Shown: in pieces, positions 359 through 19,684 of the stretch
How positions within the stretch are numbered: the stretch's first letter is position 1
Layout of the letters: the number at the start of each line of letters is the position of its first letter
NCBI RefSeq assembly: GCF_016903815.1
Contig: NZ_CP069973.1
Direction: 5' to 3' (one strand)
Length of the DNA: 64,000 bases
DNA from: Escherichia coli
Lineage (GTDB): Bacteria; Pseudomonadota; Gammaproteobacteria; Enterobacterales; Enterobacteriaceae
The notes under the pieces: model-generated
What the model saw: only the letters and a program-made list of their open reading frames with translations
What the model was told of the DNA's origin: nothing
Database searches by the model: none
Made by a program: the position numbers and the translations under genes

Positions 359-1944
359 TCCTTCACCCCACCAAATGCTTCTTCCAGCAACTGGCGCTGC
401 GCATCCGCCTCATCGCTCGCCCCCAGTTCACGCATCAGCGCATCCAGTTCAGACAGCGCCTGTACCAGTTCACCCATCGCTTCTGCCGCTAATACATCCG
501 GCTCCGGCAGGTTGTCGGCATCAATACTGTCTTTATCTTTCAGCCAGGAGATATCCAGCGAATCGGATTTCGCGGTGCGGATCCACTCGCGGCTGAACTT
601 GCGCCAGCGGCTGGTAGCAAGATGCTGGTCGGTGTTTTTGTTCTCTTCGCTGTCGGCAATTTCCGTCTCTTCGGCGTTAAAACTCCATTCACCTTCAGTG
701 CGCGGGCTTAAGCCGTGCGGGTCTTCGCCAAACACGCGCTCAAACGGTTGCAAATGCTCGTCGGTAAACGGCGTGCGTTTACCAAAGCTCGGCATATTGG
801 TCCGCAGGTCGTACACCCACACGTCATCGGTGCAGTTCTTATCCTGATTCGGGTTCGCCACCGTCCCTTTGGTAAAGAACAGCACGTTGGTCTTCACGCC
901 CTGCGCGTAAAAAATACCGGTCGGCAGACGCAGAATAGTGTGCAGATGACACTTATCCATCAGGTCACGACGGATGTCCGTACCTTTGCCGCCTTCAAAC
1001 AGCACGTTATCCGGCACCACCACCGCCGCACGACCGCCGGGGTGCAGCGTTTCGATAATATGCTGCATAAAGCACAACTGTTTGTTGCTGGTCGGGTGAA
1101 CAAAGGTGCGGGTAATGTTGGTGCCTGCGGCGCTGCCAAACGGCGGGTTAGTGGCGACAATATGCGCCTTCGGCAGGTTTTCGCCGTCGCTGCCCAGGGT
1201 GTTGCCCAGACGGATTGCGCCGCCGTGGTCGAGGTTGCCTTCAATATCGTGCAGCAGGCAGTTCATCAGCGCCAGACGACGGGTGCCGGGCACCAGTTCG
1301 AGGCCGATAAACGCGCGGTGGATCTGGAAATCCTGCGTGTCGCCATCAAGGTCGTCCAGATCGTTAGTCTGCGACTTAACGTAGCGGTCGGCTTCAATCA
1401 AAAAGCCCGCCGTACCGGCTGCCGGATCCTGTACCACTTCACGTGGCTGCGGTTTCAGCAGATGAATAATGGTTTTAATCAGCGGACGCGGGGTGAAGTA
1501 CTGGCCCGCGCCAGACTTGGTTTCATTGGCGTTCTTCTGCAGCAGCCCTTCGTACATATCGCCGAAGTCATCGCGCGACTTACCGTGCGCACCGTTGTAC
1601 CAGTCCAGTGAATCCATATTGCTGACCAGTGCGGTTATTTGTTTCGGCTCGGTGATGGTGGTACTAACATTATGAAAAACTGCCTGTACCAGCTTTTTGT
1701 CATCTTCGCCTAAATGCACGAGCATTTTTCGGTAGAACTGCAACTGCTCCTGGCCGATGCGGGATTTCAGGTCATCCCAGCGGTAACCTTCCGGCAGGTA
1801 TTCCGCTTCCTGCCCGGTCTCTTTACACATTTTCAAAAACAGCAGCGAGGCGAGTTCATTGACGTAGTTTTGATAGGAAACGCCGCCATCGCGCAGGTTG
1901 TCGCACAGCTTCCACAGCTTCGCGACCAGATCGTTATTGTTCAT
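355..1944 (-). CDS. hsdM: Type I RM DNA methyltransferase subunit HsdM (529 aa)
   Basis: ORF track 529 aa; N-terminus MNNNDLVAKLWKLCDNLRDGG and NPPFG methyltransferase motif; length as recalled for E. coli HsdM. Confidence 0.93.
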   Translation of the reverse strand: MNNNDLVAKLWKLCDNLRDGGVSYQNYVNELASLLFLKMCKETGQEAEYLPEGYRWDDLKSRIGQEQLQFYRKMLVHLGEDDKKLVQAVFHNVSTTITEPKQITALVSNMDSLDWYNGAHGKSRDDFGDMYEGLLQKNANETKSGAGQYFTPRPLIKTIIHLLKPQPREVVQDPAAGTAGFLIEADRYVKSQTNDLDDLDGDTQDFQIHRAFIGLELVPGTRRLALMNCLLHDIEGNLDHGGAIRLGNTLGSDGENLPKAHIVATNPPFGSAAGTNITRTFVHPTSNKQLCFMQHIIETLHPGGRAAVVVPDNVLFEGGKGTDIRRDLMDKCHLHTILRLPTGIFYAQGVKTNVLFFTKGTVANPNQDKNCTDDVWVYDLRTNMPSFGKRTPFTDEHLQPFERVFGEDPHGLSPRTEGEWSFNAEETEIADSEENKNTDQHLATSRWRKFSREWIRTAKSDSLDISWLKDKDSIDADNLPEPDVLAAEAMGELVQALSELDALMRELGASDEADAQRQLLEEAFGGVKE

Positions 1945-2145
1945 TGTGAGTTCCGTAAATTAAACAACGGCCCGCATTGTTTGGGGCCGCAGAAGAAGAA
2001 ATTGCCGAGGGTAATATACACAAAATCATTCAGGTTGCATCAAGGCGGCAAGTGAGTGAATCCCCGGGAGCGTACAGAAGTACGTGACCGGGGTGAACGA
2101 GCGCAGCCAACGCAGAGGCAGCCTGAAGGATGAAGTGTATACGTG

Positions 2146-5100: not shown

Positions 5101-5658
5101 TTCCAGAATGGCGATATAGCCGTTCAGGGCAACCAGCTTCTGCTGTTGCGCTTCGACTTCTGCCTGAGTCTGCGCTTTTTCTCGCGCCTGCTGTTCAAGC
5201 TGTTGTTTTAGCGTCAGCACTTCCTGGTGATAGAGGTTTTCGCCACGTTCCGGCAACACAAATACCGGCACCGGGAAGTCATAATCTTTGGTGACCAGAC
5301 GGTAGTACCAGACAGCCAGGCGGAACCCGAGTCGCAGGCACATCTGGGCATCGTCGAGATCGTTATGGTATTCGTGCACCGCCTGGTTACCAATGCGGCG
5401 TAATTTGTGGAATACAGAGAGAATGTTGTCATCAACGAAGGCGATTTTGCCGAGTTCGCGCAGGAGATCGTGTTGATTCTCACAAGGGGGGATGTTGAGT
5501 AACAGACCAAGATGTTTCGCTGTAGCTTCGCCAAACATACGCATTTTAATCAGCGTCGTGTTGGGATCATCCGGGTAGTTATTTTCCGCCGCACAGGCGA
5601 TGGCATAAGTGAAGTCGTTGACGCCCTTCAGGAATTCGAAGTTGGATTTATTCATCAT
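2146..5658 (-). CDS. hsdR: Type I RM restriction endonuclease/helicase subunit HsdR (1170 aa)
   Basis: ORF track 1170 aa; Walker A (MATGTGKT) and DEAH-like (VVDEAH) helicase motifs; sits upstream of hsdM-hsdS on the same strand. Confidence 0.93.
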   Translation of the reverse strand: MMNKSNFEFLKGVNDFTYAIACAAENNYPDDPNTTLIKMRMFGEATAKHLGLLLNIPPCENQHDLLRELGKIAFVDDNILSVFHKLRRIGNQAVHEYHNDLDDAQMCLRLGFRLAVWYYRLVTKDYDFPVPVFVLPERGENLYHQEVLTLKQQLEQQAREKAQTQAEVEAQQQKLVALNGYIAILEGKQQETEAQTQARLAALEAQLAEKNAELAKQTEQERKAYHKEITDQAIKRTLNLSEEESRFLIDAQLRKAGWQADSKTLRFSKGARPEPGVNKAIAEWPTGKDETGNQGFADYVLFVGLKPIAVVEAKRKNIDVPGKLNESYRYSKCFDNGFLRETLLEHYSPDEVHEAVPEYETSWQDTSGQQRFKIPFCYSTNGREYRAAMKTKSGIWYRDVRDTRNMSKALPEWHRPEELLEMLGSEPQKQNQWFADNPGMSELGLRYYQEDAVRAVEKAIVKGQQEILLAMATGTGKTRTAIAMMFRLIQSQRFKRILFLVDRRSLGEQALGAFEDTRINGDTFNSIFDIKGLTDKFPEDSTKIHVATVQSLVKRTLQSDEPMPVARYDCIVVDEAHRGYILDKEQTEGELQFRSQLDYVSAYRRILDHFDAVKIALTATPALHTVQIFGEPVYRYTYRTAVIDGFLIDQDPPIQIITRNAQEGVYLSKGEQVERISPQGEVINDTLEDDQDFEVADFNRGLVIPAFNRAVCNELTNYLDPTGSQKTLVFCVTNAHADMVVEELRTAFKKKYPQLEHDAIIKITGDADKDARKVQTMITRFNKERLPNIVVTVDLLTTGVDIPSICNIVFLRKVRSRILYEQMKGRATRLCPDVNKTSFKIFDCVDIYSTLESVDTMRPVVVRPKVELQTLVNEITDSETYKITEADGRSFAEHSHEQLVAKLQRIIGLATFNRDRSETIDKQVRRLDELCQDAAGVNFNGFASRLREKGPHWSAEVFNKLPGFIARLEKLKTDINNLNDAPIFLDIDDEVVSVKSLYGDYDTPQDFLEAFDSLVQRSPNAQPALQAVINRPRDLTRKGLVELQEWFDRQHFEESSLRKAWKETRNEDIAARLIGHIRRAAVGDALKPFEERVDHALTRIKGENDWSSEQLSWLDRLAQALKEKVVLDDDVFKTGNFHRRGGKAMLQRTFDDNLDNLLDKFSDYIWDELA

Positions 5659-5845
5659 TGTTATTAATCCATTGCTGTGTGGGCCTGTCCAAATATTTAA
5701 GGCCCATAACGCCCTATCTTAGCTTTCTGTACCTTTCCGGGCAATGACCGGAGTCACAGCAACTGACTCATTTCTAACGTGTTCGTCTATTTTGGTAGTG
5801 TTATAGTAGCCGAAAAACATCTACCTGATTCTGCAAGGATGTACT

Positions 5846-6760
5846 ATGACGGTTCCTACCTATGACAAATTTATTGAACCTGTTCTGCGTTATCTGGCAA
5901 CAAAACCGGAAGGTGCAGCCGCGCGTGATGTTCATGAGGCTGCCGCGGATGCATTAGGACTGGATGACAGCCAGCGATCGAAAGTCATTACCAGCGGACA
6001 ACTTGTTTATAAAAATCGTGCAGGCTGGGCACATGACCGTTTAAAACGTGCCGGGTTGTCGCAAAGTTTGTCGCGTGGCAAATGGTGCCTGACTCCTGCG
6101 GGTTTTGACTGGGTTGCGTCTCATCCCCAGCCAATGACGGAGCAGGAGATGAACCATCTGGCCTTCAATTTTGTGAATGTCAAACTTAAGTCACGGCCGG
6201 ATGCCGTCGATTTAGATCCGAAAGCCGACTCTCCCGATCATGAAGAACTTGCAAAGAGCAGCCCGGACGATCGGTTAGATCAGGCGCTAAAAGAGCTTCG
6301 TGATGCGGTGGCTGATGAGGTTCTGGAAAACTTATTGCAGGTTTCTCCTTCGCGCTTTGAAGTCATTGTTCTGGATGTTTTGCATCGCCTGGGGTATGGC
6401 GGCCACCGTGATGATTTGCAGCGTGTTGGCGGTACTGGAGATGGTGGCATCGATGGTGTGATATCGCTTGATAAACTTGGCCTGGAGAAAGTTTATGTTC
6501 AGGCAAAACGTTGGCAGAATACTGTAGGCAGGCCAGAATTACAGGCATTTTACGGCGCACTGGCTGGGCAAAAAGCGAAACGTGGGGTGTTTATTACCAC
6601 TTCTGGATTTACTTCTCAGGCGCGTGACTTTGCCCAATCCGTCGAGGGTATGGTGTTGGTTGATGGGGAACGCCTGGTGCACTTAATGATCGAAAACGAA
6701 GTAGGGGTTTCTTCACGTTTGTTGAAGGTGCCGAAACTGGATATGGATTATTTTGAGTGA
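5846..6760 (+). CDS. mrr: Mrr type IV methylation-dependent restriction endonuclease (304 aa)
   Basis: ORF track 304 aa beginning MTVPTYDKFIEPVLRYL; divergent from hsdR as in the E. coli immigration-control region. Confidence 0.88.
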   Translation: MTVPTYDKFIEPVLRYLATKPEGAAARDVHEAAADALGLDDSQRSKVITSGQLVYKNRAGWAHDRLKRAGLSQSLSRGKWCLTPAGFDWVASHPQPMTEQEMNHLAFNFVNVKLKSRPDAVDLDPKADSPDHEELAKSSPDDRLDQALKELRDAVADEVLENLLQVSPSRFEVIVLDVLHRLGYGGHRDDLQRVGGTGDGGIDGVISLDKLGLEKVYVQAKRWQNTVGRPELQAFYGALAGQKAKRGVFITTSGFTSQARDFAQSVEGMVLVDGERLVHLMIENEVGVSSRLLKVPKLDMDYFE

Positions 6761-6765
6761 AATAT

Positions 6766-6796
6766 CAGGCCGGATGCGGCTGCGCCTTATCCGGCC
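6766..6796. repeat. REP (repetitive extragenic palindrome) between convergent mrr and yjiA
   Basis: Sequence aggccggatgcggctgcgccttatccggccc has the gccggatgcg / ccttatccggc REP signature. Confidence 0.6.
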
Positions 6797-6805
6797 CATA
6801 ACCCC

Positions 6806-7762
6806 TTACTTCCTCAACCCCGCAAACGCCGCCCGAATCTCATCCTCCGGCAGCTGAATCCCGATAAACACCATCGTGCTATGCGGTTTTTCATCGCCCC
6901 ACGGCCTGTCCCAGTCGGCGCTGTAGAGGCGCTGGACGCCCTGGAACAGCAGGCGGTTAGGTTCGCCGTCAATCCACAGCATCCCTTTGTAACGCAGCAG
7001 TTTATCTGCCGATTCCAGCAGCAGGTTTTCCATCACGCGGGAAACTTCGCTGATATCTACCGGGTAATCCAGTTCCACCACAATCGACGAAATATCGTTT
7101 TGTTTGTCCGCGATAAAGTGAAAACGTGGCTTGGTGCTGACGACGTTTTCTTCCAGCATAAAACCGTTGGTGTTGAACAACAGGCCCAGGTCGATGTCGC
7201 CGTGGGTGACGGTGTAGACCGGTGCACGGGCGTTGATGCGCGCCAGGCGTTCACGCAGTTTTTCTGCTTCGCCTGCGACGTCGGTTTTAGTCAGCAGAAT
7301 ACGGTCGGCGTAGCCAACCTGGGACTGGGCGATGGTGAACTGGTTCATCTGCTCATCGGCATGTACCGCATCCACCAGCGCAATCACGCCATCCAGCAGG
7401 TAACGCTGGCATAAAATCTCATGGGAGAAAAAGGTCTGAATAATCGGGCCGGGATCGGCCATGCCGGTGCATTCAATGACCAGACGGTCGAACTGAATAT
7501 TGCCCTTGTCGAGATTATCCAGCAGGTCGAGTAGGGCGTCTTCCAGCTCGTTGGAGCGCGAACAGCAGATGCAGCCGTTGGTCAGCGTTTTGATCTGCGT
7601 GGCGCGGTCGCCAATCAGTTGATCATCAACGGAGACTTCGCCGAATTCGTTTTCAATCACGGCAATCTTGTAGCCGTGTTGTTCGTTAAGAATATGGCGC
7701 AGCAGGGTGGTTTTTCCTGCGCCTAAAAAACCGGTGAGTAGGGTAACTGCAATCGGGTTCAT
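6806..7762 (-). CDS. yjiA: CobW/HypB-family P-loop GTPase YjiA (about 318 aa)
   Basis: ORF track 346 aa; the internal Met giving MNPIAVTLLTGFLGAGKTTLL (Walker A) matches the recalled YjiA length; upstream extension is probably not translated. Confidence 0.8.
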   Translation of the reverse strand: MNPIAVTLLTGFLGAGKTTLLRHILNEQHGYKIAVIENEFGEVSVDDQLIGDRATQIKTLTNGCICCSRSNELEDALLDLLDNLDKGNIQFDRLVIECTGMADPGPIIQTFFSHEILCQRYLLDGVIALVDAVHADEQMNQFTIAQSQVGYADRILLTKTDVAGEAEKLRERLARINARAPVYTVTHGDIDLGLLFNTNGFMLEENVVSTKPRFHFIADKQNDISSIVVELDYPVDISEVSRVMENLLLESADKLLRYKGMLWIDGEPNRLLFQGVQRLYSADWDRPWGDEKPHSTMVFIGIQLPEDEIRAAFAGLRK

Positions 7763-7772
7763 GCTCTCTCCA

Positions 7773-7976
7773 TTAACAACAGCGCATACCGCCTTTACCA
7801 TCGCCGCCGTAGCGCGCGTTCTGGCGTTCGCGGAAGAATTCTTCATAGCTCATGTACGGCTTGTCGGGATGGTTGGTCTTCATATGCTCGACGTAGTTGT
7901 CGTAGTCTGGAATGCCAATCAACATCTTCGCCGCCTGGCCGAGATATTTTTTTGCCTGTCCTAAGTTACCAAACAT
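7773..7976 (-). CDS. yjiX: YjiX, DUF466 small protein, partner of the BtsT transporter (67 aa)
   Basis: ORF track 67 aa [31 protein letters not shown]...; immediately downstream of btsT, the same arrangement as cstA-ybdD. Confidence 0.8.
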
Positions 7977-8019
7977 TTTGCCTTCCAGATATGCGTAAAG
8001 CCCGGAAGGTCCGGGCTGG

Positions 8020-8093
<74 letters not shown>

Positions 8094-10244
8094 TTAGTGG
8101 TGCGAAGAGATCTTCACGCCGCCTTCCGGGATTGGAACGTACGGTGTTTCTTTGTCAGTACGTTTGTCGCTGTTACGCACCTTCAGCCAGGTTTTGAAAC
8201 CGTAGAAGATGATGCTGTACACCACAATCAGGAACAGAATACTCAGGCCTGCGTTGGTGTAGTTGTTCACAACGATGTGGTTCATGTTGGCAATCTGCTG
8301 CGCCGTCAGGTCAGTACCGTTAGCAATCTTCTCTTTGTACTGGCTCGCCATGTAGAAGAAGCCTTCCATCTGCGGGTTGGTGCTGAACAGTTTCAGGCCC
8401 AGCGCCCAGGTGGTGCAGATAAGCAGCCATACTGCCGGGATAACGGTAACCCAGATGTATTGGGTGCGCTTCATCTTAATCAGTACAACGGTGCCCAGTA
8501 CCAGCGCCACGGCTGCCAGCATCTGGTTGGAGATACCGAACAGCGGCCACAGGCTCTTAACGCCGCCCAGCGGATCGACCACGCCCTGATACAGCAGGTA
8601 GCCCCACAGACCCACACAGCCCGCAGTACCGATGATACCGGCAACCAGAGAGTCGGTTTTTTTCAGGAACGGGATGAAGTTACCCAGCAGGTCTTGCAGC
8701 ATAAAGCGGCCAGAACGGGTACCCGCATCCAGCGCGGTCAGGATGAACAGGGCTTCGAACAGAATACCGAAGTGATACCAGAAGCCCATGTCAGCCATCG
8801 GCAGCACTTTGTGGAACACGTGAGCGATACCTACCGCCAGCGTTGGCGCACCACCTGCACGGTTCAGGACAGAAGGCTCACCAATGTCTTTCGCGGTTTG
8901 CAGGATCTGCTCTGGCGAAATCACGAAGCCCCAGGAGCTGACGGTCGCTGCCGCGTGTGCGGTAACGTCTTTCAGCTGTGCCATGATGATCGGCGCGTTC
9001 TCGCCACCCATTTCATGCAGGTTAGGCATGGTGATGCCGAGGCCAGCAGGCGGGGTGTTCATCGCGAAGTAAAGACCCGGTTCGATGATGGACGCAGCAA
9101 CCAGCGCCATAATCGCCACGAAGGACTCCATCAGCATTGCGCCGTAGCCGATGAAACGCGCGTCGGTTTCATTAGCCAGCAGTTTCGGCGTCGTACCGGA
9201 AGAGATCAGCGCGTGGAAGCCAGATACCGCACCACAGGCGATGGTGATGAACAGGAACGGGAACAGAGCGCCTTTCCACAGCGGGCCAGTACCGTCAATG
9301 TACTGGGTCATGGCAGGCATTTTCAGTTCCGGGTTCAGCACCACGATACCCAGCGCCAGGCCGACGATAACGCCGATTTTCAGGAAGGTTGCCAGATAGT
9401 CGCGCGGTGCGAGGATCAGCCACACTGGCAGCAGTGCGGAAACAAACGCATAGCCAATCAGCGCGAAAGTAATGGTGGTATCTTTAAAGGTCAGTGCCGG
9501 ACCCCAGTACGGATCGTGAGCAATCACGCCACCGAAGTAGATAGAGGCAACCAGCAGCACGATACCAATGACAGAGACTTCACCCACACGCCCCGGACGA
9601 ATAAAGCGCATGTAGATACCCATAAACAGCGCAATCGGTACGGTTGAGCAAACGGTGAAGACCCCCCACGGACTTTCGGCCAGGGCTTTAACCACAATCA
9701 GTGCCAGAACGGCGAGGATGATGATCATGATTAAGAAACAGCCAAACAGCGCGATAGTCCCCGGTACTGGTCCCATCTCTTCTTTGATCATCTCACCAAG
9801 AGATGCGCCGTTACGGCGAGAGGAGATAAACAGCACCATAAAGTCCTGAACCGCACCGGCCAGCACGACCCCCGCCAGCAGCCACAGCGTGCCAGGCAGG
9901 TAGCCCATCTGCGCGGCGAGAACCGGACCCACCAGCGGACCAGCACCGGCGATAGCGGCGAAGTGGTGACCAAACAACACGTAACGGTTGGTCGGAACGT
10001 AGTTCAGACCGTCGTTGTTAATAACCGCAGGCGTCGCGCGCGTGGGGTCGAGTTTCATCACCTTCTGGGCGATGTACAGACTGTAGTAGCGATACGCCAC
10101 CAGATACACCGACACAGAGGCGACCACGATCCACAGGGCGCTGACGTGCTCCCCCCGACGTAATGCAACTACCGCGAGGCAGAATGCACCGATGATTCCG
10201 AGAATCACCCAGGGTATGTGCTTGAATATCTTTTTAGTATCCAT
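8094..10244 (-). CDS. btsT: CstA-family pyruvate/H+ symporter BtsT (YjiY), about 716 aa
   Basis: ORF track 721 aa; start set to the internal Met (MDTKKIFKHIPWVILG) to match the recalled length; multi-pass membrane protein. Confidence 0.85.
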   Translation of the reverse strand: MDTKKIFKHIPWVILGIIGAFCLAVVALRRGEHVSALWIVVASVSVYLVAYRYYSLYIAQKVMKLDPTRATPAVINNDGLNYVPTNRYVLFGHHFAAIAGAGPLVGPVLAAQMGYLPGTLWLLAGVVLAGAVQDFMVLFISSRRNGASLGEMIKEEMGPVPGTIALFGCFLIMIIILAVLALIVVKALAESPWGVFTVCSTVPIALFMGIYMRFIRPGRVGEVSVIGIVLLVASIYFGGVIAHDPYWGPALTFKDTTITFALIGYAFVSALLPVWLILAPRDYLATFLKIGVIVGLALGIVVLNPELKMPAMTQYIDGTGPLWKGALFPFLFITIACGAVSGFHALISSGTTPKLLANETDARFIGYGAMLMESFVAIMALVAASIIEPGLYFAMNTPPAGLGITMPNLHEMGGENAPIIMAQLKDVTAHAAATVSSWGFVISPEQILQTAKDIGEPSVLNRAGGAPTLAVGIAHVFHKVLPMADMGFWYHFGILFEALFILTALDAGTRSGRFMLQDLLGNFIPFLKKTDSLVAGIIGTAGCVGLWGYLLYQGVVDPLGGVKSLWPLFGISNQMLAAVALVLGTVVLIKMKRTQYIWVTVIPAVWLLICTTWALGLKLFSTNPQMEGFFYMASQYKEKIANGTDLTAQQIANMNHIVVNNYTNAGLSILFLIVVYSIIFYGFKTWLKVRNSDKRTDKETPYVPIPEGGVKISSHH

Positions 10245-10453
10245 AGTAAAACCTGGCATGTATTGATTAATAGTTGGCCGAAGCCGTTCTAGGTTTGCGT
10301 TGCGTTTGAGGAGGTAAATTGACCGCTATCCTGCAGTGATGTTGCCAGAGTTACGCGCGCGTAAAGTAAGGTAAATAACTGAGTGGTTATTTTAGGGACG
10401 TAAGCGGTCAGGAATGGCGGTGAGCGGCAAAGGCGTCGTTTAAGTGACCATAA

Positions 10454-10475: not shown

Positions 10476-10620
10476 TTATATTGCGAATAATTTATGTAAA
10501 TAATGGCTTTTTAAATTCAGGGGGTGAATAAAATTACTCGGCGTCATCTCCGCGGGATTTTCATAAAGTTTTTCCTTTCCAGGCCGAAAATCTTGCATCG
10601 GTCCACAGGAAAGAGAAACC

Positions 10621-12285
10621 ATGTTAAAACGTATCAAAATTGTGACCAGCCTACTGCTGGTTTTGGCCGTTTTTGGCCTTTTACAACTGACTTCAGGCGG
10701 TCTGTTCTTTAATGCCTTAAAGAACGACAAAGAAAATTTCACTGTTTTACAAACCATTCGCCAGCAGCAATCCACGCTGAATGGCAGCTGGGTCGCTTTG
10801 TTGCAGACGCGTAACACCCTCAACCGCGCGGGTATCCGCTACATGATGGATCAGAACAATATTGGTAGCGGTTCAACCGTTGCTGAGCTGATGCAGAGTG
10901 CCAGTATTTCGCTGAAACAGGCGGAAAAAAACTGGGCGGATTACGAAGCGTTGCCGCGTGACCCGCGTCAGAGCACCGCCGCAGCGGCAGAGATCAAACG
11001 TAATTACGATATTTATCACAATGCGCTGGCGGAGCTGATACAACTGTTAGGTGCAGGCAAAATCAACGAGTTCTTTGATCAGCCGACCCAGGGATATCAG
11101 GACGGTTTCGAGAAGCAGTATGTGGCTTACATGGAGCAAAACGATCGGCTCTATGATATCGCCGTCAGCGATAACAATGCCTCCTACAGCCAGGCGATGT
11201 GGATTCTGGTAGGCGTGATGATCGTCGTACTGGCGGTCATCCTCGCCGTCTGGTTCGGTATTAAAGCCTCGCTGGTAGCGCCAATGAATCGCCTGATTGA
11301 CAGCATTCGTCATATTGCAGGCGGCGATCTAGTGAAACCGATTGAGGTGGATGGCTCTAATGAGATGGGGCAACTGGCAGAGAGTTTGCGCCATATGCAG
11401 GGAGAGCTGATGCGTACCGTCGGTGATGTGCGCAACGGGGCCAATGCCATCTATAGCGGTGCCAGCGAAATCGCCACCGGCAATAACGATCTCTCTTCGC
11501 GCACCGAGCAACAGGCCGCTTCGCTGGAAGAGACGGCAGCCAGCATGGAGCAACTGACCGCAACGGTGAAACAGAATGCCGAAAATGCGCGCCAGGCCAG
11601 CCATCTGGCGTTAAGTGCTTCCGAAACGGCGCAACGCGGCGGCAAAGTGGTGGATAACGTGGTGCAGACCATGCGCGATATCTCCACCAGTTCGCAGAAA
11701 ATCGCCGATATTATCAGCGTAATTGACGGCATTGCCTTCCAGACCAATATTCTGGCTTTGAACGCGGCGGTTGAGGCTGCGCGTGCGGGTGAGCAAGGAC
11801 GCGGTTTTGCGGTGGTCGCGGGAGAAGTGCGTAATCTGGCCCAGCGTAGCGCTCAGGCTGCTCGTGAAATTAAAAGCCTGATTGAAGACTCGGTGGGGAA
11901 AGTGGATGTTGGCTCTACGCTGGTCGAAAGCGCCGGGGAAACAATGGCGGAGATTGTCAGTGCCGTGACCCGCGTGACGGACATTATGGGCGAAATTGCT
12001 TCTGCTTCTGATGAGCAGAGCCGTGGTATCGATCAGGTTGGCTTAGCGGTTGCTGAGATGGACCGGGTAACTCAACAGAACGCCGCGCTGGTGGAAGAAT
12101 CTGCCGCCGCCGCCGCCGCGCTGGAAGAACAGGCCAGTCGCCTGACCGAAGCAGTGGCAGTGTTCCTGATTCAGCAACAGCAGCAACAGCAGCGTGAAGC
12201 ATCGGCTGTGGTAAAAACCGTGACGCCAGCTACGCCGCGCAAAATGGCCGTGGCAGATAGCGAGGAGAACTGGGAAACGTTTTAA
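10621..12285 (+). CDS. tsr: Methyl-accepting chemotaxis protein I, serine chemoreceptor Tsr (554 aa, poly-Gln tract longer than I recall for K-12)
   Basis: ORF track 554 aa; HAMP and methyl-accepting signalling domains; C-terminal NWETF pentapeptide. Confidence 0.92.
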
Positions 12286-12294
12286 CGTAATGAT

Positions 12295-12324
12295 GCCGGA
12301 TGAGTATTTCATCCGGCGTTTTTA
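12295..12324. terminator. Bidirectional rho-independent terminator between convergent tsr and the TRAP permease gene
   Basis: gccggatgagtatttcatccggc hairpin followed by a T-run (A-run on the other strand). Confidence 0.6.
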
Positions 12325-12327
12325 TTA

Positions 12328-13599
12328 TTAAACCAGGAACAGTGAAATCGCCGGGATATATGTCACCAGCATTAGCATTAACAGTAGAGCCGCCAGTAGG
12401 GGCAGGGATTGTTTAAAGAAATTTCCCACCGAAACTTGCGTGATATTACATACCAGCAGCATCACGGTACCTACCGGTGGCGTGAATGCGCCAATCGACA
12501 GGTTGAAGATCATGATGATGCCAAAATGCACCGGATCGATGCCAAAGTGTTCGACCACCGGTTTTAATAGTGGTACCAGGATCAGCAAAATGGCGTTTCC
12601 TTCCAGAAACATCCCCAGCGTCAGCAGCAATATGTTGATAATCAACAGGAACATGTATTTGTTTTCGGTCAGCGAAGTCACAAAATTCGCCACTGCGACA
12701 CCAGCATGTTCCATTGAGAAAATCCATCCCAATGCGGCGCTGGCCATGATTACCAGCATCACCGATGCGGTTGCGCGTGCCGTTTCGCCCAATGCTTTGA
12801 CGACATGAGAAATCCGCATTTCACGATAGATAAAAAAGCCAATCGCCAGCACGATTAGCACCGCTACTGCACCTGCTTCTGTTGGGGTGAAAATGTTAGC
12901 GCGAATACCACCCACCACAGCAAAAATGAGGAACAGCGCAGGCCAGGCCTGTCCCAGCGAGAACACCATCTCTTTGCCCGTAGGCCAGCTTTCACGCGAG
13001 GGTTTAGCGTTAGTTTTGCGGGCGACAAGGTAGACGGTAAACATCAGTACGACTGCGCATAGCAAACCAGGTACCAGTCCGGCGATAAACATTTTTCCGA
13101 TAGAGACATCGGCAACCAGACCGTAAATAATCAGGGCTATTCCAGGCGGTATGATCGGGGTGACTAACGAGCCACCAGCGGTAATGGCGGCGGCAAACGC
13201 GCGATTGTAGCCTTTACGTTCCATCTCCGGCACCATCATGCGCGACAGCATCGCCGCGTCAGCAAGGTTAGAGGCGCTGACGCCGCCCATCATGGTGCTG
13301 ACGAGAATGTTTGCCACGCCCAGTCCGCCGCGCATTTTCCCCACCAGAACGTTGGCAATGTGCAGGATGCGTTCGGCAATGCCGGTGTAGCTCATTAGTG
13401 TGCCGAGCAAGATAAAAAACGGAATTGCCAGCAATGATGGGCTTTGCGTTGGCGCGATTAGTCTTTGCACGGCAATTTCAATCGGTACGCTGGAGAAGAA
13501 TAAAAAGTAAGCGATGATGCCAATAAACATCGCCAGATAGACCCGAATGTTGAGAAACAAACAGACGATCATTAGCGGAATAATCAATAACCAACTCAT
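12328..13599 (-). CDS. TRAP transporter large permease subunit (DctM family), 423 aa
   Basis: ORF track 423 aa polytopic membrane protein with DctM-like sequence; 4-bp ATGA overlap with the upstream DctQ-like gene. Confidence 0.8.
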   Translation of the reverse strand: MSWLLIIPLMIVCLFLNIRVYLAMFIGIIAYFLFFSSVPIEIAVQRLIAPTQSPSLLAIPFFILLGTLMSYTGIAERILHIANVLVGKMRGGLGVANILVSTMMGGVSASNLADAAMLSRMMVPEMERKGYNRAFAAAITAGGSLVTPIIPPGIALIIYGLVADVSIGKMFIAGLVPGLLCAVVLMFTVYLVARKTNAKPSRESWPTGKEMVFSLGQAWPALFLIFAVVGGIRANIFTPTEAGAVAVLIVLAIGFFIYREMRISHVVKALGETARATASVMLVIMASAALGWIFSMEHAGVAVANFVTSLTENKYMFLLIINILLLTLGMFLEGNAILLILVPLLKPVVEHFGIDPVHFGIIMIFNLSIGAFTPPVGTVMLLVCNITQVSVGNFFKQSLPLLAALLLMLMLVTYIPAISLFLV

Positions 13600-14069
13600 T
13601 GCATTTTGTCTCCGCTATCGGATTGTTTTGTATCGTTTATTAACCAGTAGAGGGTATAAATAGCCGTTGCCAGTGCGCCGACAGGGACCGCCAGATCGAT
13701 CCAGAACCAGGAAACTTTCAGAATTTGTGTCACTTTAAACTGCGCCATTTCGGCTAGTCGGTAGCCCAGCCAGGCCATATAAAGCAGCAGTGCGATGGAG
13801 AGAAGGGCGACCAGTACTGCAATAACACGCCTGAGTTTGCCTGGAAGCATCTCCATCAGGAAGGGAATGGTCAGGTGCGCCCTGTCACGTTCCGCCACCA
13901 CTCCACCTAACATCACCACCCAAATCATCAGCATTCCCGACATTTCTTCTGTCCATTGAAGCGGTTGGCCGATGAAATAACGCATAAATACCGCTCCAAT
14001 TGTCACCACAACCAGAACGAATAGCGCAAAGGCAGCACTAAATTCTGCCACTTTGCCAAAAAGACGCAT
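13596..14069 (-). CDS. TRAP transporter small permease subunit (DctQ family), 157 aa
   Basis: ORF track 157 aa, four predicted TM segments, lies between DctP-like and DctM-like genes. Confidence 0.75.
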   Translation of the reverse strand: MRLFGKVAEFSAAFALFVLVVVTIGAVFMRYFIGQPLQWTEEMSGMLMIWVVMLGGVVAERDRAHLTIPFLMEMLPGKLRRVIAVLVALLSIALLLYMAWLGYRLAEMAQFKVTQILKVSWFWIDLAVPVGALATAIYTLYWLINDTKQSDSGDKMQ

Positions 14070-14132
14070 GAAACCTCCTGTTAGTGCGTGTCCTGCCTAA
14101 GAGAGATGAGGCAGGACGCTGAGCATTAATGC

Positions 14133-15104
14133 TTATTGCAGTTGCTGTTGAATGGTTTCGTACAGACCTGGTGTCCATTCCGGGAATTGAGAGTAAACTT
14201 CGCGTGCTTTCTTCTGGAATGGTCCAGTATCGGGATAGATCACTTCGACGCCGGCTGCCTGCATGGTTTTCAACATTTCGGCATCACGCTCAAGAGTGAG
14301 TTTCTGGCTATAGACACCCGCTTCATAGCCGGTCTGGTGGATCATCTCCAGTTGTTCTGGTGAAAGGGTGCTAAAGAAGGCTTCACCACCTATCCACACT
14401 GAGGTATTTGTCAGGTAGTTAACCATTGTCAGATATCTTGCCTGCTCATACAGTTTTTGCCCTTGCAGCACTGAAATTGGGTTTTCTACGCCGTCAATAA
14501 CGCCCTGGGTTAATGCGGGATAAACTTCGCCTAATGGCATGGGAGTTGGTGTTGCCCCCATCGCCTGAATGGCTTTTATTTGCATGACGTTATTAGGAAC
14601 GCGAATTTTTAAACCTGCGAGATCGTCAACGGTGCGAATGGGTTTTTTCGAAATAATCTGTCGAGTGCCATAGAGATAATTATTCATTACCACATGAATT
14701 CCCTTTTTCTTCAGACTTTCATTTTTTTGTTTAAACCAGTCGCTTTCATATATTTTGAACAGTTTTTGCGGATCGTCAGTCAGATACGGTCCAAACAAAA
14801 TCCCCAAATCGGGTTCATAATCGGCAAGAAAAGCCACATCACTCAAGGTTATGACATTCATGCCCATCATGGCTTGCTCGGTGACATCCTGTTTTGATCC
14901 CAATTGGGAGCTGGGATAGAGCGCAAGTGTTATTTCGCCATTACTTTTTTTATTTAATAGGTCTGCCCAGTAACGCATGACCACATCCAGGGGTTCTCCA
15001 GGGTTATTTTCATAGGCAACTTTTATTGAAATAGGTTTTGCCTGGATTATTGACGGTAAAAAAAGGGTACTGACAGTAATTAGCATCGCTATTATTTTGC
15101 TCAT
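14133..15104 (-). CDS. TRAP transporter periplasmic solute-binding protein (DctP family), 323 aa
   Basis: ORF track 323 aa with N-terminal signal peptide (MSKIIAMLITVSTLFLPSIIQA) and DctP-like body; first gene of the dctPQM-type operon. Confidence 0.8.
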   Translation of the reverse strand: MSKIIAMLITVSTLFLPSIIQAKPISIKVAYENNPGEPLDVVMRYWADLLNKKSNGEITLALYPSSQLGSKQDVTEQAMMGMNVITLSDVAFLADYEPDLGILFGPYLTDDPQKLFKIYESDWFKQKNESLKKKGIHVVMNNYLYGTRQIISKKPIRTVDDLAGLKIRVPNNVMQIKAIQAMGATPTPMPLGEVYPALTQGVIDGVENPISVLQGQKLYEQARYLTMVNYLTNTSVWIGGEAFFSTLSPEQLEMIHQTGYEAGVYSQKLTLERDAEMLKTMQAAGVEVIYPDTGPFQKKAREVYSQFPEWTPGLYETIQQQLQ

Positions 15105-15794
15105 CTTTACTTACTCCATGCTAAGGAAATAAAACTCCAACATTGTTGTCGGGAGTGAAACCTTATGAAAAAGCAGTCATTACTGAAAAGTAGTCAGCGA
15201 ATAGCAGAATGGCTGCAGATGTATCATAAATTCGTGCACCGGGTAATACTTTGCTGCTTTTAATCGGTTTTTAATGCATTTTTTGATTGTATATCTTAAA
15301 GTTATGTAATGCATGACGTTACAAGGAACACCCTCTGATGAGTTTAGTTACCGCTGATAAGATCTCTTATTCTGTTGATGATTTATTAAAAATAAAATCA
15401 TTAATTTGGCTGCGGCCATTTTAAATTGTCAATACAGATAAAAACTAAGTGTTGACGCAGAATGGTGGTATCCATTAAATTTATTTAGTGCTGATTTAAT
15501 ACATTTGCTGAACGTATAATTCATGCTGATATTAAAAGAAAACCGTCATTCACTAAATAACTTGTTCGGCAAGGAAATCAGAGAGTAACGGATGATTCGT
15601 TACAACGGGGAAAGGCAGTAAATATTCACGTGGTGAATTTGTTATCAACTTGAAAACTCATTTTACTGGGTTCCTTCTGATCATGTGAGTGAACGCAGTG
15701 ATTAATGATTAACGTTAAGTGCTAACCAGAGCGCTTTTTATGAAGTTAAATTAATAATATCCATTATTTATGAATGAGGAAGCCTGTTTATTAT

Positions 15795-17447
15795 ATGGAA
15801 ATACTTTTAACAATTTTAATTCTTACGTTGGTAGTATCATTAACCAGCGTGCTTACACGTCTGTCTCCTGTCCAGATACCACTTCCTTTAATCCAGATTG
15901 CCGCTGGCGCAGTACTGGCCCAGCCTATATTTGGTCTGCATGTGGAATTCAATCCTGAACTTTTTCTCTTATTGTTTATACCACCCCTGTTGTTTGCTGA
16001 AAGTTCAAAAATACAACCTAAAGAATTGATCAAGCACAGCCGGGAAATTATCAGCCTGGCACTTGTGTTGGTACTAATCACTATTTTTGGTGTCGGCTAT
16101 GTGATTCATTTACTCTTACCGAATGTGCCGCTCATCGCTGCTTTCGCATTAGCCGCCGTGTTGTCGCCTACCGATGCCGTGGCGTTGCTGGGGATTGTCG
16201 GGAAAGGGCGTATCAGCAAAAACATCCAGGAAGTGCTCGAAGGCGAAGCGTTGATGAATGATGCTTCCGGCCTGGTGGCGTTGAAATTTGCTGTTGCAGT
16301 GACGATGGGAACGATGGAATTCAGCGTTCATGGCGCAACCATTGCGTTTTTTGTCGTTGCGTTGGGCGGTATTGCCGTGGGGATCGCTGTTACCTGGTTA
16401 TATGGTAAAGGGCTGCTGTTGATCAGCCGATATGCTCACGATGAACCTTCCATTCAGATTGTATTGATGCTTCTGTTGCCGTTTATTGTTTATCTGGTTG
16501 CGGAACATTTTGGCTTATCTGGCATTCTTGCCGCTGTCGCCGCGGGGTTAACAACCAGTCGCATTGGTGTAGTCCACCACGCGCCTATTCGCCTGAGAAT
16601 TAAAGCTAAAAGTAGCTGGTCGATGCTTGAATATGTCTTTAACGGCATGGTGTTTCTGATTTTAGGCTTACAACTGCCGGGCATTATTTCGGAATCACTG
16701 ATCCGTGCAGAAAACGATCCACTGGTGGACACCGGATCGCTGCTCCTTGATGTCATTTGGATCTACCTGGCGTTAATGGTTGTGCGCCTGGGCTGGCTTT
16801 GGCTGATGCGTCTGTATAGCCGTAAACGACCCGGCAAACATCCGATGCTGTTTGCTGGATATAAAACGCGTCATATGCTGCTGGCGACCTTTGCGGGGGT
16901 GCGCGGAGCTATCACGCTTGCGGGGGTGCTTTCTATCCCGTTATTGCTGCCGGATGGCACACCTTTTCCCGGGCGTTACTTGCTGGTATTTCTCGCCACA
17001 GGTGTGATCCTCTTTTCGCTGGTTTGCGGCATTATTATTCTGCCGTTATTACTGGGGAAAAATGTGGGGATTTTCAGCGATAACCGACAAAAAGAAGAGG
17101 AAGCTGCCGATCTGTTTATGGCTAAAATGGCCATACTGAGTGTGCAAAAGACCGAGCAACGTTTGCTGCGCGCCAGAACAGAAAACCTCGATAACGAGTT
17201 GATTATGGAAACGGGGGCCAGAGTTATCGGTTATATGCGACATAGTGAAGAGGATATGTCGCCTAATGATAATTCCCTGCATATGCAGCGTGCGAAGCTG
17301 GAAAGAACATTTAATCTGGCGGCGTTAAATGCCAAACGCGCGGCTATTTACCAGATGCGCGCAAGGCAAGAAGTCAGTGATGAAACACTGGCAAAAATAG
17401 TCAGTGAATTAGATGTGCTGGAAACGTTAATCATGGATAGCCGATAA
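15795..17447 (+). CDS. CPA1-family Na+/H+ antiporter (NhaP type), about 550 aa
   Basis: ORF track 557 aa from 15774; I place the start at the second Met (MEILLTILILTL, 15795), which is preceded by aggaag; transmembrane exchanger domain plus cytoplasmic C-terminal tail; an alternative start is at 15774. Confidence 0.75.
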   Translation: MEILLTILILTLVVSLTSVLTRLSPVQIPLPLIQIAAGAVLAQPIFGLHVEFNPELFLLLFIPPLLFAESSKIQPKELIKHSREIISLALVLVLITIFGVGYVIHLLLPNVPLIAAFALAAVLSPTDAVALLGIVGKGRISKNIQEVLEGEALMNDASGLVALKFAVAVTMGTMEFSVHGATIAFFVVALGGIAVGIAVTWLYGKGLLLISRYAHDEPSIQIVLMLLLPFIVYLVAEHFGLSGILAAVAAGLTTSRIGVVHHAPIRLRIKAKSSWSMLEYVFNGMVFLILGLQLPGIISESLIRAENDPLVDTGSLLLDVIWIYLALMVVRLGWLWLMRLYSRKRPGKHPMLFAGYKTRHMLLATFAGVRGAITLAGVLSIPLLLPDGTPFPGRYLLVFLATGVILFSLVCGIIILPLLLGKNVGIFSDNRQKEEEAADLFMAKMAILSVQKTEQRLLRARTENLDNELIMETGARVIGYMRHSEEDMSPNDNSLHMQRAKLERTFNLAALNAKRAAIYQMRARQEVSDETLAKIVSELDVLETLIMDSR

Positions 17448-17617
17448 TTTTATCGCTGCCAGTAATAGGGAATTAAATGATGGCTGAGAGTAATACTTCC
17501 AGCATCGTTTATTCCCTATGTATTTCCTTATGGGCAGAACAATCGCCTGGATTAATACTGCATTAATACAACATAGTGATATAAACCAAGAATCAATGTT
17601 TTTAATCTGTACTTAAT

Positions 17618-18523
17618 TTATCGGTGATGTTGCCTGATGGAACGAATCATTGATTGTTTGGCGGTATCCAGATGGTTTCGCAACGCCGTTATTGCATCTA
17701 AATCGCTACGGCAAATCAGGGCGCTGAGAATGGTCATATGTTCATCAACAGCAATGATATTGCGCTGTTTGAGATCGCTTTCATCCCATTGATAGTGAAA
17801 ATGAAAGATCACCGATATAATTTCAAGTGATTGATTAAAAAAGATGTTGTCAGCAGCGGATAACAGCATGGCATGAAAATCACGGTCTAATTGAGAAAAC
17901 ATTCGAAAGTTGCTGCCAATGCTGTCGCGCAATGTCCTGTGACGTTCGAGCATGGTTTTCGCCTGCAACCAGCGAGGGTCATCATCGGGAAGGTTGAGAA
18001 AGTGTTGCAGGGAATGTGTTTCGAGCATTTCGCGTAGCTCAAACAGCTGCTCGGCGTAGGATTGATCGAACTGCTTCATGCTCCATTGGCCGCGCTTTTC
18101 GCTTTGAATAAGATTATAACGACCGAATTTCAAAAGATATTCTCGTACCACTACCGGACTGACGCTTGCCGCTCGCGCCAGCTGAAGTTCGGAAAAGCTT
18201 TCTCCGGCGCGTAACTGGCGCAGGTTAATCATGGTGAAAAATGCCTGCTCGAAAAGACGGTTTTGCTCTTTCAGCGAGGCCGTGATGCAATCAAATCCAT
18301 CGTTCTGTTCGGGTTTGCGGGCGATAACATAATTTTTCCCCACCAGGGTGAGCACGCCACATGCGCTTAAATGCTGGAGTATGTGGCGTACCGTAGTGCG
18401 ACTGATGTTATACATTTCTGCCAGTCCGCTTTGTGAAGGCAGCGGAGAAGGAATATTGCCCCTCGCCATATCTTCAATCACCTGATTTATGACGCTATGA
18501 CGTAAATTCTGCGAACGACTCAT
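17618..18523 (-). CDS. lgoR: GntR-family transcriptional regulator LgoR (YjjM)
   Basis: ORF track 301 aa with N-terminal winged-HTH (AEMYNISRTTVRHIL); divergent from lgoD as in K-12. Confidence 0.8.
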   Translation of the reverse strand: MSRSQNLRHSVINQVIEDMARGNIPSPLPSQSGLAEMYNISRTTVRHILQHLSACGVLTLVGKNYVIARKPEQNDGFDCITASLKEQNRLFEQAFFTMINLRQLRAGESFSELQLARAASVSPVVVREYLLKFGRYNLIQSEKRGQWSMKQFDQSYAEQLFELREMLETHSLQHFLNLPDDDPRWLQAKTMLERHRTLRDSIGSNFRMFSQLDRDFHAMLLSAADNIFFNQSLEIISVIFHFHYQWDESDLKQRNIIAVDEHMTILSALICRSDLDAITALRNHLDTAKQSMIRSIRQHHR

Positions 18524-18566
18524 TCTTCCCTCCAGTCCGGCATTAAAAGCCGATTTAAAACATTTT

Positions 18567-18584
18567 TATGCGCGATCATCCGCA
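18567..18584. promoter_or_regulatory. Inverted repeat in the lgoR/lgoD divergent promoter, candidate GntR-type operator
   Basis: ATGCG-cgatcatc-CGCAT palindrome; position only, no known consensus applied. Confidence 0.3.
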
Positions 18585-18661
18585 TATTTTATGGGTAAAT
18601 TCAGGCGCTCTTATAAATTCGACGATATCTGAAAGTCATAAAATAAAAGGAGCGGTGAATC

Positions 18662-19684
18662 ATGTCCACAATGAAAGTATTAATTTGTCAGGAAATAAAG
18701 AATTTAGTATGGGAAGTCCGGGAAAGACCGGTGCCAGGCGATAATGAAGCATTAATTAAAATTAAAACTGTCGGGATTTGCGGTACAGATATTCATGCCT
18801 GGGCGGGCAATCAGCCATTTTTTAGTTATCCACGCGTTTTAGGCCATGAAATATGTGGGGAGATTATTGAATCAGGAAAAAACATTCACAATTTTAATAT
18901 CGGACAGCAAGTTGCGGTAATTCCGTATATTTCTTGTCAGCAATGCCCGGCGTGTAAAAGCGGTCGTACCAATTGCTGTGAAAAAATTTCAGTCATTGGC
19001 GTGCATCAGGATGGCGGTTTTAGTGAGTATTTGAGCGTGCCGGTGGCGAACATTTTGCCCGCAGACGGTATTGACCCGCAGGCGGCAGCATTGATTGAAC
19101 CTTTCGCTATTAGCGCTCATGCGGTGCGTCGTGCCGCCATTGCACCCAGCGAGCAGGTGCTGGTGGTCGGGGCGGGGCCAATCGGTCTGGGCGCGGCGGC
19201 AATCGCTAAAGCCGATGGCGCGCAGGTGGTGGTGGCGGATACCAGTCCGGCGCGTCGTGAACATGTGGCAACGCGTCTGGAATTACCTGTTCTGGACCCG
19301 TCAGCCGAAGATTTTGACGCGCAGCTGCGGGCGCAGTTTGGTGGTTCGCTGGCGCAGAAAGTGATTGACGCGACAGGTAATCAACATGCGATGAATAACA
19401 CCGTAAATCTGATTCGTCACGGCGGCACGGTGGTATTTGTCGGCCTGTTTAAAGGTGAGTTGCAGTTCTCCGATCCGGAATTCCATAAAAAAGAAACGAC
19501 GATGATGGGCAGCCGCAACGCCACGCCGGAAGATTTCGCTAAAGTCGGTCGATTGATGGCGGAAGGGAAAATCACTGCCGACATGATGTTAACCCATCGC
19601 TATCCGTTCGCCACGCTGGCAGAAACCTACGAGCGCGATGTGATTAACAATCGTGAGTTGATTAAGGGTGTAATTACTTTCTGA
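18662..19684 (+). CDS. lgoD: Zn-dependent L-galactonate 5-dehydrogenase LgoD (YjjN), 340 aa
   Basis: ORF track 340 aa; MDR/alcohol dehydrogenase fold with GHEICGE zinc motif and GAGPIGLG NAD-binding motif. Confidence 0.88.
   Translation: MSTMKVLICQEIKNLVWEVRERPVPGDNEALIKIKTVGICGTDIHAWAGNQPFFSYPRVLGHEICGEIIESGKNIHNFNIGQQVAVIPYISCQQCPACKSGRTNCCEKISVIGVHQDGGFSEYLSVPVANILPADGIDPQAAALIEPFAISAHAVRRAAIAPSEQVLVVGAGPIGLGAAAIAKADGAQVVVADTSPARREHVATRLELPVLDPSAEDFDAQLRAQFGGSLAQKVIDATGNQHAMNNTVNLIRHGGTVVFVGLFKGELQFSDPEFHKKETTMMGSRNATPEDFAKVGRLMAEGKITADMMLTHRYPFATLAETYERDVINNRELIKGVITF

Follow-up and report, generated by a model that had tools for sequence, protein, structure and literature searches.

Which sugar acid enters a cell of Escherichia coli whose L-galactonate (lgo) locus keeps the regulatory gene lgoR and the dehydrogenase gene lgoD, and has an unrelated transporter where lgoT would be? 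The question is raised by a stretch of 64,000 nucleotides from E. coli (contig NZ_CP069973.1 of RefSeq assembly GCF_016903815.1), which we call the window. Between tsr and lgoR, it encodes a tripartite ATP-independent periplasmic (TRAP) transporter, DctPQM, and, divergently, a Na+/H+ antiporter of the CPA1 family. We argue that these genes belong to a minority allele of the lgo locus, and we put the probability that the TRAP system is an uptake route for L-galactonate-type acids at about 0.68. This reading, which the preliminary description of the window had also put forward as a candidate, gains comparative support from the position of the genes, from the regulatory block upstream of them, from the family of the binding protein, and from the gene neighborhoods of related systems.

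An alternative allele of the lgo locus

The preliminary description of the window, which was made from its sequence alone, had recognized a complete DctP/DctQ/DctM system. The open reading frames (ORFs) bear this out, with profile matches for DctP and DctM. All three genes are on the minus strand: dctP (14133..15104) encodes a periplasmic solute-binding protein (SBP) of 323 amino acids with an N-terminal signal peptide, dctQ (13596..14069) encodes a small permease of 157 amino acids, and dctM (12328..13599) encodes a large permease of 423 amino acids. The stop codon of dctQ overlaps the start of dctM. The antiporter gene (15795..17447, plus strand; 550 amino acids) had also been placed correctly, and its product matches the CPA1 profile TIGR00831 with 526.8 bits (cut-off 279.6). 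Over positions 10600-18600, the sequence matches that of E. coli strain 7/2 (NZ_CP023820) with 100% identity, and for this strain RefSeq gives the order btsT, tsr, TRAP large permease, TRAP small permease, “C4-dicarboxylate TRAP substrate-binding protein,” Na+/H+ antiporter, GntR-family regulator, lgoD, and opgB.

The preliminary description had also named lgoT as the gene that K-12 carries in the tsr-lgoR interval, and most E. coli indeed have lgoT there. In the lgoT-type strain JJ2434, the interval contains lgoT alone, and among 5,426 complete E. coli genomes, 4,520 have lgoT. We found the TRAP system in 862 of these genomes, the antiporter in 860, and neither form in about 45, so the TRAP/antiporter form is present in 860-863 genomes, or about one sixth (~16%) of E. 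coli. Among its carriers are enteropathogenic E. coli E2348/69 as well as strains with serotypes O2:K1:H7 and O18. A simulated junction that has the TRAP system without the antiporter matched 0 of the 5,426 genomes.

How much was exchanged? On the left, the lgoT haplotype stops being homologous at 12285, right after the stop codon of tsr, and the sequence 3' of this stop codon differs between haplotypes. Homology resumes at 17597, within the spacer between the antiporter gene and lgoR (17448..17617). In lgoT-type strains, lgoR is followed by a block of which the last 21 bases of this spacer (17597-17617) are what remains: GTACAGATTAAAAACA in the window matches GTACGGATTAAAAACA of the K-type, and the antiporter insertion has its right edge here. 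Between 17597 and about 19000, DNA identity to the lgoT haplotype is 70-90%, as compared to 97-99% in the flanks (tsr, btsT, the rest of lgoD, and opgB). A sliding comparison of identity puts the right recombination boundary inside lgoD, near 19000. Because the divergence reaches into lgoR and lgoD, the swap exceeds the transporter genes: the exchanged unit is about 6.7 kb (12286 to ~19000) and comprises dctPQM, the CPA1 antiporter gene, a divergent lgoR, the lgoR-lgoD promoter region, and the 5' third of lgoD. In other words, the cassette is a minority allele of the lgo locus that replaces the segment from lgoT through lgoR to the 5' part of lgoD.

Thus, the earlier statement that lgoR and lgoD are retained needs to be qualified. 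Both genes are present, but both are divergent alleles. The GntR/FCD-type regulator LgoR (17618..18523, minus strand; 301 amino acids) is 87% identical to LgoR of lgoT-type strains. The first ~340 bases of lgoD (18662..19684, plus strand), which encodes L-galactonate 5-dehydrogenase, belong to the divergent haplotype, and LgoD is 93% identical to its lgoT-type counterpart overall but only about 75% identical over the first 80 residues. Similarly, the transporter genes had been described as AT-richer than the neighboring core genes. Given a GC content of 0.519 for the window, this holds for dctP (0.436) and for the intergenic spacer (0.336) but less so for dctM (0.506) and the antiporter gene (0.479).

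Three genomes, among them strain GN02350 (NZ_CP095518.1 1268038-1287690), have a third haplotype in which the genes are in the same order. The TRAP proteins of this haplotype are 96-98% identical to those of the window while the DNA of its antiporter gene and spacer is only about 82-83% identical, so the cassette is both mosaic and old. The lgoT and TRAP forms would replace each other through homologous recombination within the core genes on either side. As for lgoT itself, the copy in strain KA0011 is broken by IS1, strain a7 keeps a 135-bp remnant, and three of the matches to lgoT are located on plasmids.

A shared regulatory sequence

The TRAP form and the lgoT form share the sequence in front of the transporter. 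A block of about 45 bp, GATTAAAA.CA.CAAA....TA.C..G.GCACG..TT.A, is common to the upstream regions of dctP in the window, of dctP in Citrobacter, and of the K-type lgoT. In the window, this conserved regulatory block lies 5' of dctP at 15225..15280 (minus strand), as delimited by alignment with the other two upstream regions. Because the same block is present in all three, we conclude that the transporter genes were exchanged downstream of one regulatory sequence.

Inside this block, at 15255-15277, is a 23-nt operator-like motif, GCATTAAAAACCGATTAAAAGCA. It pairs with positions 18540-18562, upstream of lgoD, to form the best inverted repeat in the 6.5-kb region, and the two sites are oriented alike with respect to the genes that they precede. 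With 2 mismatches allowed, the 16-nt core of the motif occurs only upstream of dctP and of lgoD in all 64 kb, and 0.3 occurrences would be expected. The second site (plus strand, with sequence GCATTAAAAGCCGATTTAAAACA) is in the divergent promoter region between lgoR and lgoD (18524..18661), within a block of 31 nt that is invariant across four haplotypes or species. We infer that the motif is a candidate operator for LgoR, which would then govern expression from the promoter regions of both dctP and lgoD. We also searched the window for a box of the UxuR/ExuR type (consensus AATTGGTATACCAATT), and with up to 3 mismatches there was no match.

In K-12, lgoT is described as being co-transcribed with lgoR in an lgoRT operon (PMC5934670). 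In the TRAP form, the antiporter gene lies between lgoR and dctP in the opposite orientation, so dctPQM should depend on a promoter of its own.

Which acid does the TRAP system import?

DctP belongs to the TRAP binding proteins. It scores 179.5 bits against TIGR00787 (cut-off 175.05) and 177.7 bits against NF037995, both of which are NCBIfam profiles; 83 TRAP binding proteins in the PDB match it at E<1e-10; and by inspection, its N-terminus (MSKIIAMLITVSTLFLPSIIQA/KP) reads as a Sec signal. Its closest structural match is Oant_3902 of Ochrobactrum anthropi (4OVT; 70% identity over the full length, E 6e-147). A protein from Actinobacillus succinogenes (4O8M) follows with 42% identity and E 9e-81. 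The ligands in these two structures are presumably L-fuconate and L-galactonate, with L-fuconate in 4OVT. A model of DctP from AlphaFold 2, made with an alignment of 34 sequences, has a mean confidence (predicted local distance difference test, pLDDT) of 89, and its top match in the PDB is again 4OVT, with a template modeling (TM) score of 0.87-0.93. (A model from the single sequence was discarded, with a pLDDT of 34.) Across 34 relatives, R148 and R168 of DctP are invariant and N208 is nearly so. With an offset of about 21-22 residues, these correspond to R127, R147, and N187 of SiaP. In SiaP, R147 is the conserved arginine that binds the carboxylate of the substrate.

DctM is the large permease. 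It scores 399.6 bits against TIGR00786 (cut-off 268.45) and aligns over its full length to PpSiaM (7QHA_B, E 1.4e-79). The positions of the Na1 and Na2 sites and both twin prolines are conserved: G105, S108, T147, I150, and P151-P152 in the first half, and G329, G370, T373, P374-P375, and V376 in the second. The counterparts in PpSiaM are S103, S106, G145, V148, and P150, and G325, G366, T369, and M372; these positions and the twin prolines also match HiSiaQM. For DctQ, the only profile match is a weak one to YiaM (E 8.9e-9). It can be identified from its ORF and its position nevertheless, as orthologs of DctQ (37-80% identity) lie between dctP and dctM in 63 of 65 related loci at the thresholds that we used, and RefSeq annotates dctQ as a TRAP small permease.

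The 65 related loci come from a scan of 100,044 species genomes, and their gene context is independent evidence on the substrate. Within 10 kb of the related TRAP genes, there is a Zn-dehydrogenase at 57 of the 65 loci, a UxaA-like dehydratase at 42, and a UxaB-like reductase at 34. Loci of the Brucella/Ochrobactrum type have all of these in the order uxaB-like, exuR-like, uxaA-like, Zn-dehydrogenase, and dctPQM. The Zn-dehydrogenase, UxaB, and UxaA genes encode the steps from L-galactonate to tagaturonate, to altronate, and to 2-keto-3-deoxygluconate (KDG), which is an established pathway (Kuivanen and Richard 2014, as cited in PMC5507952).

TRAP systems for such acids have precedents. PMC5507952, which cites Vetting 2015, documents a TRAP system with dual specificity for L-fuconate as well as L-galactonate, and PMC12076931 names both compounds as TRAP ligands from the Vetting 2015 screen. 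Given the neighborhoods and these precedents, we propose that DctP would capture L-galactonate, and probably also its 6-deoxy analog L-fuconate, in the periplasm; that DctQM would import the captured acid in a Na+-driven manner; and that LgoD would oxidize L-galactonate to D-tagaturonate, which would feed the route through UxaB, UxaA, and KDG.

Several observations weigh against this proposal. The closest relative of the TRAP system outside of the syntenic loci, in Edaphovirga cremea (SBP 83% identical; L057:13073-16651 in our set of loci), is followed by otnK-otnC-ygbI-otnI rather than by lgo genes. These neighbors point to a four-carbon role (threonate or erythronate) for the Edaphovirga system, so specificity may differ within this branch of the binding proteins. 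Another relative, in Affinibrenneria, has no catabolic neighbors. The Na+-site positions of DctM are mostly backbone ligands and are kept in most TRAP systems, so that their conservation, while consistent with Na+ coupling, is supportive but not diagnostic. As for regulation, our literature search found no experimentally defined binding site for LgoR, and a scan for sigma-70 promoters was uninformative (12 sites, versus 11.4 expected from shuffled sequence).

The obvious alternative is that the TRAP system imports some other acid, such as L-threonate, D-erythronate, another hexonate, or L-fuconate only, that L-galactonate uptake was changed or lost, and that lgoD and lgoR were kept for other reasons. 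The Edaphovirga ortholog that clusters with otn genes fits this view. So does the divergence of LgoR and of the N-terminal part of LgoD, as specificity could have shifted along with the transporter, and PGAP leaves this lgoR unnamed and labels LgoD as “zinc-binding alcohol dehydrogenase family protein.” On the other hand, LgoD as a whole is 93% identical to the characterized type; position, regulatory block, and motif are common to the lgoT form; and linkage to LgoD-, UxaA-, and UxaB-like genes is found across the family. On balance, we consider another substrate to be unlikely, and we prefer L-galactonate.

A second, paralogous TRAP operon (SBP 72-73% identical) is present at another locus in E. 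coli SCPM-O-B-8794 (L006:4995-13354), E. albertii, and E. whittamii. Its neighbors are a GntR/FCD regulator, an RraA-family protein, a Zn-dehydrogenase, a short-chain dehydrogenase/reductase (SDR), and a dehydratase that resembles the C-terminal part of UxaA. Weak matches are also present in 106 E. coli genomes, and the operon is probably the “GR 21” region of avian pathogenic E. coli (APEC) BEN2908 (PMC12928451). At the 3' end of the operon in the window, a terminator scan identified a hairpin with a 13-bp stem (12292..12320) between the convergent genes tsr and dctM.

The origin of the antiporter

Besides its match to TIGR00831, Pfam PF00999 is recorded for proteins that are identical to the antiporter. 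Its LSPTDAVAL and EGEALMNDASGLV segments align with LSATDPVAV and EGESLMNDGTAIV of SOS1, and these TD and ND motifs, which also align with NHE structures, are those of electroneutral CPA1 exchangers. (Some NhaP-type members exchange K+.) The protein is 59% identical to the yjcD-linked ortholog of YjcE in Brenneria, and on sequence grounds we identify it as a paralog of YjcE that was inserted between lgoR and the regulatory block of dctP.

Relative to Citrobacter, the insertion is about 2.3 kb, roughly 15281-17596. Copies of TTTTAATC(G/T)GT border it, and its flanks are AT-rich, with a GC content of 0.33. Part of it is the AT-rich spacer upstream of the antiporter gene (15281..15794), for which neither Citrobacter nor lgoT-type E. 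coli has a counterpart and which shows only patchy conservation with the GN02350 haplotype. The 690-bp spacer contained no convincing small ORFs, and we found no traces in it of lgoT or of a TakP-type dctP. Comparison of the antiporter's flanks with the loci in Limnobaculum, Edaphovirga, and Brenneria found no DNA homology outside of the coding sequence. No Rfam family matched 12200-18700 at E<=1, which means that the antiporter gene has no known Na+/Li+ riboswitch upstream of it.

Close relatives of the antiporter are rare. In a search of 5.8 billion protein clusters, only four lineages, E. coli among them, were above 60% identity, and the closest relatives, at 76-77%, are from Limnobaculum, Edaphovirga, and one unassigned contig. 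In Limnobaculum and in “Klebsiella sp. I138,” the gene is divergent from dctP of a TakP-type TRAP operon, across a gap of about 700 bp. This operon is unrelated to the one in the window (26-28% SBP identity). On the unassigned contig (L078), the gene lies between a fragment that reads as a ManD/RspA-like dehydratase and genes of the DeoC-like and DASS families. In Edaphovirga cremea, the relative (76%; L068:5862-9356) is on a 222-kb contig, immediately downstream of plasmid-type genes (ParA, ParG, and Rep3) and with a MatE gene nearby as well. Such a setting hints at movement of the antiporter clade on DNA of plasmid origin.

We also came across two in-frame hybrids of yjcE and the antiporter gene, with crossovers at about nt 840 and about nt 490 (L076:10001-11653, from GCA_015160575.1 JADDTD010000016.1, and L073:1133-2782, from ENA ERZ827177 NODE_3979). 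One of the hybrid contigs has the order yjcD-hybrid-lgoR-lgoD-opgB and the other has dctP-hybrid-LysR-lrgAB-actP-yjcH-acs. These are either large chromosomal rearrangements between paralogs (60-75% DNA identity) or chimeric assemblies.

Does the antiporter serve the TRAP system?

The antiporter might export the Na+ that the TRAP system brings in, as had been hypothesized in the preliminary description. In that case, the two would be a functional pair with a sodium circuit of its own, in which the CPA1 exchanger uses the proton gradient to expel the co-imported Na+. Transport by the model TRAP system SiaPQM is Na+-driven, and the Na+ sites are conserved in DctM. Within E. coli, the TRAP genes and the antiporter gene always stay together (860 versus 862 genomes, and no junctions that lack the antiporter), but the distance of about 700 bp is enough by itself to predict perfect linkage. 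The antiporter clade, at 75% identity or above, is known from just four contexts; in Limnobaculum and “Klebsiella sp. I138,” its divergent neighbor is once more a dctP, from an unrelated TRAP system and across a similar gap; and in the third context there is a gene from the DASS family of Na+-coupled anion symporters nearby. By our own rough estimate, given just a few TRAP operons per ~4,500 genes, it is unlikely that two of four contexts would adjoin a TRAP system by chance. This recurrence is suggestive of a functional link, but it is offset by the related TRAP loci, as none of the 65 has a CPA1 gene within 10 kb, and the syntenic locus of Citrobacter amalonaticus lacks the antiporter as well.

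Alternatively, the antiporter is a hitchhiker: a paralog of YjcE that contributes to general cation or pH homeostasis and has no link to the uptake of sugar acids. We give this an even chance. The gene has the structure of an insertion, with AT-rich flanks, an AT-rich upstream region of its own, and the opposite orientation, which speaks for a hitchhiker and against a pair. The same is true of its absence from Citrobacter and the related TRAP loci and of the copy in Edaphovirga, which is beside plasmid-type genes and about 100 kb from the TRAP operon. Furthermore, we did not find a shared regulatory motif near the start of the antiporter gene, and E. coli is already known to have NhaA, NhaB, ChaA, and YjcE. 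A hitchhiker does not readily explain the second adjacency, to an unrelated TRAP operon, nor why the gene is intact in 860 genomes and in three haplotypes whose DNA differs by as much as 17%. Even so, we view a dedicated pair as possible but doubtful. It is a slightly more speculative idea that an accessory clade of CPA1 antiporters has been recruited repeatedly beside Na+-coupled importers of carboxylates (two unrelated subfamilies of TRAP systems and possibly a DASS symporter).

That a TRAP system paired with a Na+/H+ antiporter is not a described module, as had been stated in the preliminary description, agrees with our literature search for such a module, which found none. If there is a functional link, then the antiporter would be a dedicated partner that returns Na+, and the lgo cassette would be a self-contained “sodium circuit” for uptake. 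E. coli would then be polymorphic in how it takes up one and the same gut nutrient: through lgoT, with low affinity and driven by protons, or through the cassette, with high affinity and driven by sodium. In any case, the adjacency offers a test bed for whether Na+-coupled importers recruit a Na+/H+ exchanger of their own.

Why lgoT and the TRAP genes avoid each other

The gene swap itself is annotated, the TRAP and CPA1 families are known, and the mutual exclusion of the two forms was published in 2023. According to Beavan et al. (PNAS 2023, PMC10769857), the absence of siaP, siaT, nhaK, and dctM is predicted by lgoT along with mdtM, lgoT and those genes are never found together, and gains and losses occurred independently dozens of times. 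As causes, the authors considered redundancy, toxicity, or environment; neither L-galactonate nor a shared locus is mentioned in PMC10769857. What we add is a substrate assignment, the extent of the cassette, a regulatory motif, comparative evidence on the antiporter, and an explanation of the exclusivity.

The explanation is that lgoT and the TRAP/antiporter genes avoid each other because they are alternative cassettes at one chromosomal site. That they are alleles of one site is an observation, and we think that they most likely have the same substrate as well. Linkage probably explains the association of mdtM with lgoT too. On the map of K-12, mdtM lies near the lgo locus, beyond the hsd/mrr region and outside of the window. 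Allelism at one site is a caution for analyses of co-occurrence in pangenomes.

The region upstream of tsr (1-10259 in the window) contains hsdR, mrr, yjiA, yjiX, and btsT and is a variable restriction (“immigration control”) region. In JJ2434, it has other restriction genes and a BrnT/BrnA pair. Several other “avoidance” nodes of Beavan et al. (symE, hsdM, and mrr) come from this neighborhood.

If our substrate assignment is correct, then L-galactonate uptake in about 16% of E. coli would rely on a binding-protein-dependent and probably Na+-driven system. Such a difference between lineages may bear on the competition for nutrients in the gut.

Comparison with known systems

Among the closest known systems is the lgo locus of Citrobacter amalonaticus, which is syntenic (opgB-lgoD-lgoR-dctPQM-tsr-btsT) and whose DctP, DctM, and LgoR are 90%, 94%, and 88% identical to those of the window. 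It differs in that there is no antiporter, so that lgoR is followed by dctP after 184 bp, and in that it has an extra small ORF between dctM and tsr (L003:12880-13395; GNAT-like by eye), which is not found in E. coli. The Oant_3902 system of Ochrobactrum/Brucella anthropi (4OVT, from the screen of Vetting et al. 2015) has the same SBP fold, the same dctPQM order, and the same linkage to an LgoD-type Zn-dehydrogenase. In alphaproteobacteria, the genes form a cluster with uxaB, exuR-like, uxaA-like, and dehydrogenase genes, whereas in E. coli the operon is at lgoR-lgoD, the Uxa genes are elsewhere, and an antiporter gene has been inserted.

The sialic-acid transporter SiaPQM of Haemophilus influenzae and Photobacterium profundum has the same architecture as the system in the window, and the Na1 and Na2 sites, the twin prolines, and the Arg/Arg/Asn positions of the SBP are held in common. 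The Q and M proteins of the window are separate polypeptides, as in PpSiaQM. However, the SBP of SiaPQM is only 26-29% identical to DctP, and its substrate is of another class. The other TRAP system of E. coli, YiaMNO of K-12, also takes up a sugar acid (2,3-diketo-L-gulonate), but it is distant: DctM scores 239 bits where the equivalog cut-off for YiaN is 800, and DctQ scores 36 bits where the cut-off for YiaM is 260. The antiporter resembles YjcE, which E. coli and other Enterobacterales encode on the chromosome at the yjcD-yjcE locus, in its family, its length, and its TD and ND motifs; the two are about 59% identical, and the paralog in the window is accessory.

Finally, LgoT (YjjL) of K-12 is encoded at the position of the TRAP form, downstream of the same regulatory block and likewise beside lgoR and lgoD, and the predicted substrate is the same. 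Yet LgoT is a single-component L-galactonate:H+ symporter of the major facilitator superfamily, while the system in the window is from an unrelated family and is tripartite, binding-protein-dependent, and probably Na+-coupled.

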